Below are positions 29,270-53,493 of a stretch of DNA of 64,000 bases, piece after piece; positions within the stretch are counted from its first letter, which is position 1; each line of letters starts with the position of its first letter. Below the pieces are notes generated by a model. That model was not told the DNA's origin and did not search any database. It was given only the letters and a program-made list of their open reading frames with translations. Origin of the DNA: Candidatus Woesearchaeota archaeon (GTDB lineage: Archaea; Nanobdellota; Nanobdellia; UBA10117; JABICX01); contig JABICX010000010.1 of NCBI GenBank assembly GCA_018652045.1, forward strand, positions 68,451-132,450. Direction: 5' to 3'. The translations under genes were made by a program, and so were the position numbers.

Positions 29270-29375
29270 GCGCAGGTGGCCAAATCCGGTACAGTAAAAG
29301 AGGAGTTCTTTTCCTGCGGGAAAAGGCGTGCGGTTGCAGCCCGCAAGATTATGGGTTCGAATCCCATCCTGCGCT
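29270..29375 (+). tRNA. tRNA-Cys(GCA) with one intron in the D-loop
   Basis: Acceptor GCGCAGG/CCTGCGC, discriminator T73. Anticodon arm TGCGG-TTGCAGC-CCGCA. T arm ATGGG-TTCGAAT-CCCAT. The span is 106 nt; removing 29291-29322 gives a 74-nt cloverleaf. Confidence 0.8.
29291..29322 (+). other. tRNA-Cys intron (32 nt, non-canonical D-loop position)
   Basis: Hand-folded BHB. Central helix TCCG/CGGG, 3-nt bulges GTA and AAA. Intron helix CAGTAAAAGA/TCTTTTCCTG (1 mismatch). The D-stem GCC/GGC acts as the exon helix. Confidence 0.65.
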
Positions 29376-29386
29376 TTATTTAAATA
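29374..29386 (+). promoter_or_regulatory. TATA-like box upstream of cysS, overlapping the tRNA-Cys 3' end
   Basis: CTTTATTTAAATA about 25-30 nt upstream of ATG 29408. Confidence 0.45.
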
Positions 29387-48442: not shown

Positions 48443-48452
48443 CTTTTATAAA
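48443..48452 (+). promoter_or_regulatory. TATA-like box upstream of tRNA-Asn
   Basis: CTTTTATAAA, 24-33 nt upstream of 48476. Confidence 0.5.
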
Positions 48453-48475
48453 ATCAAGTTAAACCTTACTTGTAT

Positions 48476-48548
48476 GCCTGGGTGGCTTAGTTGGTAGAGC
48501 GTGCGGCTGTTAACCGCGAGGTCACAGGTTCGAGTCCTGTCCCAGGCG
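48476..48548 (+). tRNA. tRNA-Asn(GTT)
   Basis: GCCTGGG/CCCAGGC acceptor, G73. Anticodon arm TGCGG-CTGTTAA-CCGCG. T arm ACAGG-TTCGAGT-CCTGT. 73 nt, no intron. Confidence 0.9.
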
Positions 48549-48575
48549 CTAATGCTTTTTAGCTTTCTCAAAAGT

Positions 48576-48585
48576 CTTTTAAATA
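48576..48585 (+). promoter_or_regulatory. TATA-like box upstream of tRNA-Ile
   Basis: CTTTTAAATA, 22-31 nt upstream of 48607. Confidence 0.5.
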
Positions 48586-48606: not shown

Positions 48607-48717
48607 GGGCGGGTAGCTCAGCCTGGTTAGAGCGCTGGTCTTATAGGGCCGCTTCCATAAGGAAGTTCTCTGGCTTAAGATAGCCAGATGTCGGGAGTTC
48701 AAATCTCCTCCTGCCCA
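48607..48717 (+). tRNA. tRNA-Ile(TAT) with canonical intron
   Basis: Acceptor GGGCGGG/CCTGCCC, A73. D arm GCTC-AGCCTGGTTA-GAGC. Anticodon stem CTGGT/GCCAG, loop CTTATA|A. T arm GGGAG-TTCAAAT-CTCCT. 75 nt after removing 48646-48681. Confidence 0.8.
48646..48681 (+). other. tRNA-Ile intron (36 nt, position 37/38)
   Basis: Textbook hBHBh' fold. Central helix CTTA/TAAG, bulges TAG and ATA, outer helix GGCC/GGCT. Confidence 0.75.
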
Positions 48718-48751
48718 CTTATTTTTACAAAATTTTTCTTACGGAAGAAAG

Positions 48752-48761
48752 TCTTATAAAC
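48752..48761 (+). promoter_or_regulatory. TATA-like box upstream of tRNA-Glu
   Basis: TCTTATAAAC, 24-33 nt upstream of 48785. Confidence 0.5.
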
Positions 48762-48784: not shown

Positions 48785-48859
48785 GCCCCTATGGTGTAGC
48801 CCGGTCAATCATCTCAGGCTTTCGCCCTGAGGACGGGGGTTCAAATCCCTCTGGGGGCA
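48785..48859 (+). tRNA. tRNA-Glu(TTC)
   Basis: GCCCCTA/TGGGGGC acceptor, A73. GGTGTAGCCCGGTCAATCAT D region typical of archaeal tRNA-Glu. Anticodon loop CTTTCGC. T arm GGGGG-TTCAAAT-CCCTC. Confidence 0.88.
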
Positions 48860-48892
48860 CTACACTTTTATAGTTCTGACTTGTTCTATTGT

Positions 48893-53204: not shown

Positions 53205-53295
53205 TTATTCTTGAGATTAGTAACCTTTTTAATTAGACTTAGAAGTTATTCTATTATGCAGGGGTGCCGGAGTGGTCAAACGGGCTGGGCTTAGG

Positions 53296-53369
53296 TAGCT
53301 TCGTTTTTCTTAGGAAAAGCGACGTAAGTGCGAAAGCCATACGAAAAAAGGCTTTTAATCGCCCAGGAA
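53296..53369 (+). other. tRNA-Leu intron 1 (about 74 nt, position 37/38)
   Basis: Needed to bring A+CCCAG (53370-53375) next to the anticodon loop. Only a relaxed BHB is visible (CTT/AGG, 3 bp). There are two strong internal hairpins (53302-53321 and 53333-53355). A second CCCAG at 53362 makes the 3' boundary ambiguous. Confidence 0.5.
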
Positions 53370-53383
53370 ACCCAGTGGCTTAG

Positions 53384-53413
53384 ATGGTACGGCTATAGTG
53401 CATGCCAGAGCAA
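53384..53413 (+). other. tRNA-Leu intron 2 (30 nt, in the variable-arm loop)
   Basis: BHB with central helix GCTT/GAGC, bulges AGA and AAT, and intron helix TGGTA/TGCCA. Confidence 0.55.
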
Positions 53414-53493
53414 TGCCTACGGGGGTTCGAATCCTCTCCCCTGCACTATATTCTCTACAATATACTTTTATACGAGCCATGATGATTATCTAA

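Follow-up and report, generated by a model that had tools for sequence, protein, structure and literature searches.

We found that positions 48607-48717 of the window, which is the whole stretch of 64,000 nucleotides that was analysed, very probably hold a functional gene for the AUA-decoding tRNA-Ile3(UAU) of a small marine DPANN archaeon. The gene is ordinary for its lineage, and its arrangement is already known from related tiny archaea. What goes beyond earlier knowledge is only the set of tallies at the scale of the phylum and the tension between this tRNA and Elp3.

The gene was recognised by two programs. Infernal with the Rfam model RF00005 matched the full model (1-71) with 54.8 bits (E 5.3e-11; the gathering score is 29), and its alignment contained a 37-nt insertion straight after CUUAUA. 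ARAGORN, when introns were allowed, called a tRNA-Ile(tat) with a 36-nt intron at G000:C15:117057-117168 (G000 is the genome studied here), and the same program without intron handling did not call the tRNA-Ile(UAU) gene. The features of the locus are shown in Table 1. The original prediction had given coordinates for this gene and had stated that removal of a bulge-helix-bulge (BHB) intron leaves the anticodon TAT; the coordinates were all correct, and the sequence and both programs concur on the anticodon.

In the 5' exon we read the acceptor strand GGGCGGG, U8 and A9, the D arm GCTC-AGCCTGGTTA-GAGC, G26, and the anticodon-stem strand CTGGT, followed by C32, T33, T34, A35, T36, and A37 as its part of the anticodon loop. 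The 3' exon supplies A38, the strand GCCAG, the variable region ATGTC, the T arm GGGAG-TTCAAAT-CTCCT, the acceptor strand CCTGCCC, and A73. Archaeal TATA boxes have a known consensus and spacing; judged by these, the TATA-like box upstream of the gene is a probable archaeal promoter, and the T run downstream probably serves as the transcription stop. The two neighbouring tRNA genes each have a TATA-like box about 27-29 nt upstream of their starts (48444-48453 for tRNA-Asn and 48753-48760 for tRNA-Glu), and the order Asn-Ile-Glu recurs in two relatives (loci L003 and L004). An ArgRS gene is also a neighbour of the locus.

Table 1. Features of the tRNA-Ile(UAU) locus, in positions of the window
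Feature	Position	Strand	Evidence
TATA-like box TTTTAAATA, centre about 26 nt upstream of the tRNA start	48577..48585	+	read from sequence
5' exon of pre-tRNA-Ile(UAU), positions 1-37	48607..48645	+	Infernal alignment, ARAGORN, sequence
Anticodon TAT (U34 A35 U36)	48642..48644	+	sequence, Infernal, ARAGORN; no variant letters in 4 independent metagenome runs
36-nt intron at canonical 37/38, bulge-helix-bulge motif	48646..48681	+	ARAGORN, BHB reading, folding
3' exon, positions 38-73, ending in discriminator A73, no encoded CCA	48682..48717	+	sequence, Infernal, ARAGORN
T5 run just 3' of the gene	48722..48726	+	read from sequence
Neighbouring tRNA-Asn(GUU), in the cluster Asn - Ile(UAU) - Glu	48476..48549	+	ARAGORN, Infernal
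Neighbouring tRNA-Glu(UUC), in the cluster Asn - Ile(UAU) - Glu	48785..48860	+	ARAGORN, Infernal

The gene stretch was also found in marine and seawater metagenome runs of several studies, none of which is on record as RNA, and we compared contigs from four other marine metagenome runs belonging to four studies. Since these independent runs show no other letter at 48642-48644, the TAT anticodon is not an assembly error. One 331-nt contig covers 48470-48800 with zero differences. A variant contig from one run has five listed differences (48646, 48648, 48657, 48659, and 48674), and all of them are intronic. That is, the exons are invariant in these contigs, and the variation lies inside the intron only. 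Many contigs match the 5' exon as far as 48645 and then diverge, as would be expected of related organisms with other introns.

It had been predicted from the gene that TiaS is absent. In this genome, which is in 25 contigs and is 88.5% complete, a figure that limits every claim of absence made for it, neither TiaS_FLD (PF08489, at E values up to 1) nor TiaS_TCKD (PF22641) gave a match, as had been predicted, and each of these two families matched 4/4 archaeal control genomes every time. PF08489 was also without a match in 41 relatives and in 401 genomes of the phylum, 400 of which are at least 90% complete, and PF22641 had 0 matches among 401 genomes in the same kind of phylum sample. The TilS-type PP-loop family PF01171 had 0 matches in the genome. 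This family also covers the archaeal s2U34 enzyme.

A search for tRNA-Ile2(CAU) had been proposed as a second check. ARAGORN found only two CAU tRNAs, which look like an initiator and an elongator tRNA-Met. The initiator-like one (G000:C12:16993-17069) has A1:U72 and three G:C pairs (GGG/CCC) in the anticodon stem; the elongator-like one (G000:C5:2004-2126) has a 50-nt intron and the acceptor strand GTCGAGG. A third CAU tRNA did not turn up in this 88.5%-complete genome, in which several other isoacceptors were also undetected, and a BLAST search of the genome with the UAU gene gave no further Ile-like tRNA. We also observed that the elongator-like CAU tRNA has G37 after BHB splicing (loop CUCAUGA) and that its counterparts in two relatives, G044 and G010, have A37. 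G37 is unusual in a tRNA reading a codon that starts with A.

The total number of tRNAs was 41 with ARAGORN and 33 with Infernal, and all of the latter are within the former. Neither program detected tRNAs for Asp, Cys, or Pro, and therefore the detection of tRNAs in this genome is incomplete. Several isoacceptors (Asn GUU, Tyr GUA, Phe GAA, Arg UCU, and Thr UGU) were called twice, some of them at contig ends. As a more complete genome we used G044, a relative of the same class that is 99% complete; its 773,982 nt form one scaffold, which is interrupted by only one 100-N gap. Its CAU tRNAs number two, an initiator and an elongator, and the acceptor of the latter is like that of the elongator-like tRNA here. 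It also has one tRNA-Ile(GAU) and one tRNA-Ile(UAU), whose gene contains a 25-nt intron. The same-order relative G010 (a 919,475-nt scaffold with 46 gaps of 100 N, whose multi-intron tRNAs are mis-parsed by ARAGORN and Infernal) was dropped as a closed-genome check on the absence of the CAU tRNA because of these gaps and the mis-parsing, and G044 took its place.

These results bear on the possibility that the UAU gene is redundant or decaying, and that AUA is decoded by a tRNA-Ile2(CAU) and TiaS lying in the unassembled 11% or so of the genome. With a completeness of 88.5% and several isoacceptors missing from the tRNA calls, this genome taken alone leaves room for a hidden tRNA-Ile2(CAU) or TiaS. 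However, neither TiaS domain was found in the phylum sample, and the CAU tRNAs of the nearly complete G044 are an initiator and an elongator only, accompanied by the UAU tRNA. The UAU gene itself is intact and conserved and has a promoter-like box, and its exons are kept unchanged in the environmental contigs in which the intron varies. We therefore consider this possibility very unlikely, and retain the reading of the UAU gene as the gene for the tRNA that decodes AUA.

As for the intron, the central helix of the BHB is formed by C32-A35 (CUUA) and UAAG at the 3' end of the intron (48676-48679). Two 3-nt bulges, UA|G and AU|A, lie around this 4-bp helix, and there follow an outer helix GGCC/GGCU and then an inner hairpin. 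When the anticodon stem was enforced, the BHB was the optimal fold in ViennaRNA, with -17.8 kcal/mol. The unconstrained minimum-energy fold is another structure with -21.3 kcal/mol, 3.5 kcal/mol more stable than the BHB, in which the intron's CUGGCU takes the 3' anticodon-stem strand as its partner. This CUGGCU mimics the 5' strand of the anticodon stem (window 48635-48687). The mimic is present here and in the closest relative fetched (L002, of the same genus), and is missing from the orthologues outside the genus.

If the free fold were taken at face value, the intron would be placed elsewhere, the hairpin CUGGCU-UAAGAU-AGCCAG (48670-48687) would form the true anticodon arm, and the tRNA would have an anticodon other than UAU. 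This hairpin is indeed favoured by the minimum-energy fold of the arm as well as of the whole gene. Its loop, however, has 6 nt and not 7, and the segment that would be excised is without a BHB. Moreover, CUUAUA is aligned as the loop by both Infernal and ARAGORN, and the orthologues outside the genus, which have no mimic, keep CTTATA and an intron partner TAAG, TGAG, or TAGG. Taken comprehensively, the alternative placement is highly improbable, and we hold to the intron at 37/38. The genome encodes the splicing endonuclease EndA (PF01974, 98 bits, G000:C4:19164-19424, in a 212-aa frame) and the RtcB ligase (PF01139, 585 bits).

Then the spliced tRNA of 75 nt was compared with the other 40 tRNAs that ARAGORN found in the genome, and the best match was tRNA-Ile(GAU) at G000:C4:97863-97939. 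Outside the anticodon arm, only two positions distinguish the two tRNAs, which have the same acceptor stem, D stem, and T arm. The acceptor and D arm had originally been described as Ile-like, and the body of the tRNA is nearly identical to that of the genome's own tRNA-Ile(GAU). In G044, the UAU and GAU tRNAs also share the acceptor stem and the D arm. The acceptor strand there, GAGCCCG, differs from that of the present genome, yet it is common to both Ile tRNAs; therefore, the two Ile tRNAs co-vary between genomes. The likeness to tRNA-Ile(GAU), together with A73, indicates that the spliced tRNA has isoleucine identity. IleRS is encoded in the genome (699.5 bits, G000:C23:27356-29851).

The frequency of AUA had been suggested as a further check, and we counted it in 488 ORFs that do not overlap and are 150 aa or longer. 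The codon proved to be common: its frequency is 24.1 per 1000, it makes up 32% of the Ile codons, and it ranks 14th among 61. We also aligned the ORFs of this genome with their best matches in G044 (183 alignments) and G010 (240 alignments), and counted the residues opposite each codon only where the codon of the partner was not AUA. Opposite AUA (2590 codons) stood I in 31%, V in 21%, L in 20%, and M in 3.8%. The corresponding values were I 34%, V 21%, and L 19% for AUU (3854 codons), and I 37%, V 20%, and L 18% for AUC (2762 codons), whereas opposite AUG (3065 codons) they were M 34% and L 22%. The substitution profile of AUA thus matches those of AUU and AUC and not that of AUG, and AUA therefore behaves as an isoleucine codon. 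Judging from these alignments, AUA is read as Ile in this genome.

We give next to no credence to the idea that the tRNA carries UAU without being an Ile tRNA, and that AUA has acquired another meaning, such as the Met of some mitochondria: nothing specific speaks for it except that the anticodon alone does not fix identity and that the closest non-Ile tRNA, the elongator-like CAU tRNA, has 76% identity, whereas here as well as in G044 the tRNA shares its acceptor stem, D arm, and T arm with tRNA-Ile(GAU), and M is far rarer opposite AUA than opposite AUG.

The following course of events can be proposed, in which we infer that the gene is expressed, that its intron is removed in vivo, and that IleRS charges the product, as well as the state of U34. 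Transcription is probably driven by the gene's own TATA box. The 36-nt intron and the anticodon loop would fold into the BHB, the splicing endonuclease would cleave at 37/38, and RtcB would join the exons. The mature tRNA would be charged by IleRS, since it has the same body as tRNA-Ile(GAU) of this genome. It would then read AUA directly, in place of the tRNA-Ile2(CAU) and TiaS (agmatidine) of most archaea. The original prediction, that AUA is decoded by an alternative strategy without TiaS, is supported by the absence of TiaS matches, the use of AUA, and the Ile-like body of the UAU tRNA.

Next we consider the distribution of the gene. A BLAST search in 40 relatives, with inspection of 30 fetched loci, placed the UAU gene in 17 genomes including the present one. 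A strict pattern for the tRNA(UAU), consisting of the D arm, the anticodon stem, and CTTATA, was matched in 230 of 401 genomes of the phylum, all of one class, and 171 genomes were without a strict match. The reversed control pattern had 0 matches in every one of the 401 genomes. Four of the matching genomes are unpublished (G281, G431, G357, and G368), and the tally without them is 226/397. The value of 230/401 is a lower bound because an intron in the anticodon stem hides the gene of G010 from the strict pattern.

An intron at 37/38 was found in 44 of the 46 pattern-bearing loci (among L001-L060), with lengths of 18-99 nt. In the 44 loci, the 3' end of the intron is TAAG, TGAG, TAGG, TGGG, or GAAG, which pairs with CUUA, and the discriminator was A73 in 44/44 parsed genes. 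The two exceptions are intronless genes in two genomes of one genus in the phylum (L042 in G256 and L043 in G310), and therefore the intron is not obligatory. A universal intron is ruled out by these two loci and by at least 4 intronless loci with archaeal labels elsewhere.

The pattern was also searched in one genome per prokaryotic species, and an arbitrary sample of at least 120 loci was considered. By label, at least 31 of the loci listed are archaeal, comprising at least 14 Woesearchaeota, 3 Pacearchaeota, 3 Nanoarchaeota/Nanoarchaeia, 2 Aenigmatarchaeota, 1 Undinarchaeota, 1 Micrarchaeota, 1 Thermoplasmata, and 6 unspecified. Among these 31, 24 have the 37/38 intron, 4 do not, and 3 were unparsed. 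Three named loci exactly match loci from members of the phylum, and the phylum therefore holds MAGs deposited as Woesearchaeota and Pacearchaeota. GTDB merges Woesearchaeota and Nanoarchaeum equitans in one phylum; in NCBI both are in the kingdom Nanobdellati. At least 89 of the loci listed are bacterial by label, mostly Patescibacteria/Saccharibacteria, and the other bacterial labels among the matches listed include Planctomycetota, Chloroflexota, and Streptomyces (one on a plasmid). Among these 89 (in L064-L183), 73 parse as intronless tRNAs. Judged by this pattern, bacteria may have a UAU Ile tRNA far more often than the 17 genomes given in PMC8450103 suggest.

The original prediction held that a genomic UAU anticodon is confined to a few lineages, and this was too narrow: the UAU tRNA is also in print for ARMAN-2, -4, and -5 (PMC3239211), and in the present data it extends across the entire phylum. 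It was further suggested that the gene could serve as a lineage marker. It does run through the phylum, but it is not exclusive to it, since many bacteria have the same pattern, and so have MAGs labelled Aenigmatarchaeota, Undinarchaeota, Micrarchaeota, and Thermoplasmata.

Several other tRNA-like loci were noted. The tRNA-Ile(UAU) gene of G010 (L021, G010:C1:165565-165708, minus strand) seemingly has three introns, in the 5' strand of the anticodon stem, at 37/38, and in the variable region, and ARAGORN mis-calls it as tRNA-Pyl(cta). Another locus of the same genome (G010:C1:196476-196562) gave a weak tRNA match of 20.2 bits, reading as the 3' part of a tRNA-Val(UAC) with a BHB intron, but its 5' part is disrupted; the tRNA may be split or have several introns. 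In the window, ARAGORN called a 'tRNA-???' with a two-base anticodon at 29288-29376 (G000:C15:97738-97826). Infernal gave this locus 25.9 bits, below the gathering score, and it may be a degenerate or tRNA-like element. ARAGORN also called a tRNA-Thr(ggt) with an oddly placed 93-nt intron at 53258-53446 (G000:C15:121708-121896), which Infernal did not report; this is either a disrupted tRNA or a false call.

We next turn to U34. The genome encodes Elp3 (TIGR01211, 621 bits). Most members of the phylum keep it, the Radical_SAM_C domain of Elp3 being found in 142/151 genomes; this family also matches some bacterial controls, and most of its matches are in frames of about the length of Elp3. A haloarchaeal U34 mutant of tRNA-Ile (UAU) carries cnm5U34 and binds AUA > AUG > AUU (PMC3895270). 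Elp3 thus coexists here with a UAU tRNA that would misread AUG if its U34 were modified in the haloarchaeal manner, and accurate decoding is therefore not explained. TruD/Pus7 is present in the genome. The TruA/Pus1 family (PF01416) had 0 matches in the genome and is almost absent from the phylum, with matches in 2/151 genomes only, and a Pus1-like route to pseudouridine is disfavoured for this reason.

Three states of U34 can be considered. By analogy with Mycoplasma mobile, U34 may be unmodified, with a co-adapted IleRS and ribosome, and we give this close to an even chance. That U34 carries another protective modification, such as pseudouridine, is a lesser possibility. Less likely still is an Elp3-type modification of U34 with tolerated competition with Met-tRNA. 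In the BHB of 44/46 genes, the 37/38 intron holds U34 inside the central helix. One might speculate that the near-universal intron is functional, the precursor being the substrate or a timing device for a protective change of U34, although we think this quite unlikely. One candidate change would be pseudouridylation, for which a guide RNP or some enzyme outside the Pus1/TruA family could be responsible. The change would block Elp3 from making xm5U34, which would misread AUG. If true, archaea would have their own equivalent of the modification that in eukaryotes depends on the intron of tRNA-Ile(UAU), made via different enzymes. In three genomes of family f34 (G071:C1, G125:C1, and G144:C8), an Elp3 match lies 1-9 kb from the tRNA-Ile(UAU) gene. 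This nearness may be chance in such small genomes.

The gene can be compared with the known systems as follows. In eukaryotes, the pseudouridine of tRNA-Ile(UAU) depends on the intron and on Pus1. It is located at position 34 of the cytosolic tRNA (PMC3895270, PMC8879553). The genes of the phylum resemble the eukaryotic ones in that the anticodon is UAU, that an intron pairing with it is nearly always present, and that they coexist with Elp3. The situation is unlike that of eukaryotes with respect to Pus1/TruA, for which the tallies were given above.

In Mycoplasma mobile, U34 of tRNA-Ile2(UAU) is described as unmodified and Arg865 of IleRS as critical (Taniguchi et al. 2013, PMC3575796). As in M. 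mobile, UAU would here decode AUA, and the C34-modifying enzyme that was lost there was not found in the present genome. In contrast to the gene studied here, the tRNA-Ile2(UAU) of M. mobile is bacterial and has no intron.

ARMAN-2 (Ca. Micrarchaeum), -4, and -5 are reported to possess tRNA-Ile(UAU) without tRNA-Ile(CAU) and TiaS (Fujishima et al. 2011, PMC3239211). The same report describes the pre-tRNA-Ile(UAU) of ARMAN-2 with a 25-nt intron at 37/38 and a strict hBHBh' motif, which was cut in vitro. The present case is similar in that a DPANN archaeon has a UAU tRNA-Ile and no TiaS match in its genome; the two CAU tRNAs found in this 88.5%-complete genome are initiator-like and elongator-like. 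It differs from ARMAN-2 in that the intron has 36 nt rather than 25 nt, that the phylum is of the Woese-/Pacearchaeota type, and that the gene is here described from its sequence.

According to one survey of 167 archaeal genomes, tRNA-Ile-UAU was reported only in Korarchaeum cryptofilum and Nanoarchaeum equitans, and the UAU gene of K. cryptofilum has an intron and resembles that organism's own GAU tRNA (PMC6000648). The name tRNA-Ile3(UAU) comes from tRNAscan-SE 2.0, which is described as assigning it to the same two archaea and to 17 bacterial genomes (PMC8450103). In these two archaea, a genomic UAU replaces tRNA-Ile2(CAU) (PMC8450103, PMC6000648, PMC3895270), as we propose here. The likeness to K. 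cryptofilum extends to the intron and to the best match with the genome's own tRNA-Ile(GAU), exactly as in the present genome. The papers on these two species present two species-specific gains among 167 genomes, whereas here the gene is found throughout the phylum sample. We found no statement of a phylum-wide pattern for the Woese-/Pacearchaeota-type archaea or for the DPANN as a whole in open-access papers and bioRxiv.

The results carry a warning for annotators: tRNA finders blind to introns miss the essential tRNA-Ile(UAU) gene. They also sharpen the question of how an anticodon with U34 reads AUA and not AUG in archaea that keep Elp3. Compared with the systems described above, the gene adds one more example of the known agmatidine-free reading of AUA, and the scale of the pattern is what is useful: in the 401 sampled genomes of the phylum no TiaS domain was found, and at least 230 of them have a UAU tRNA of this design, nearly always with an intron.
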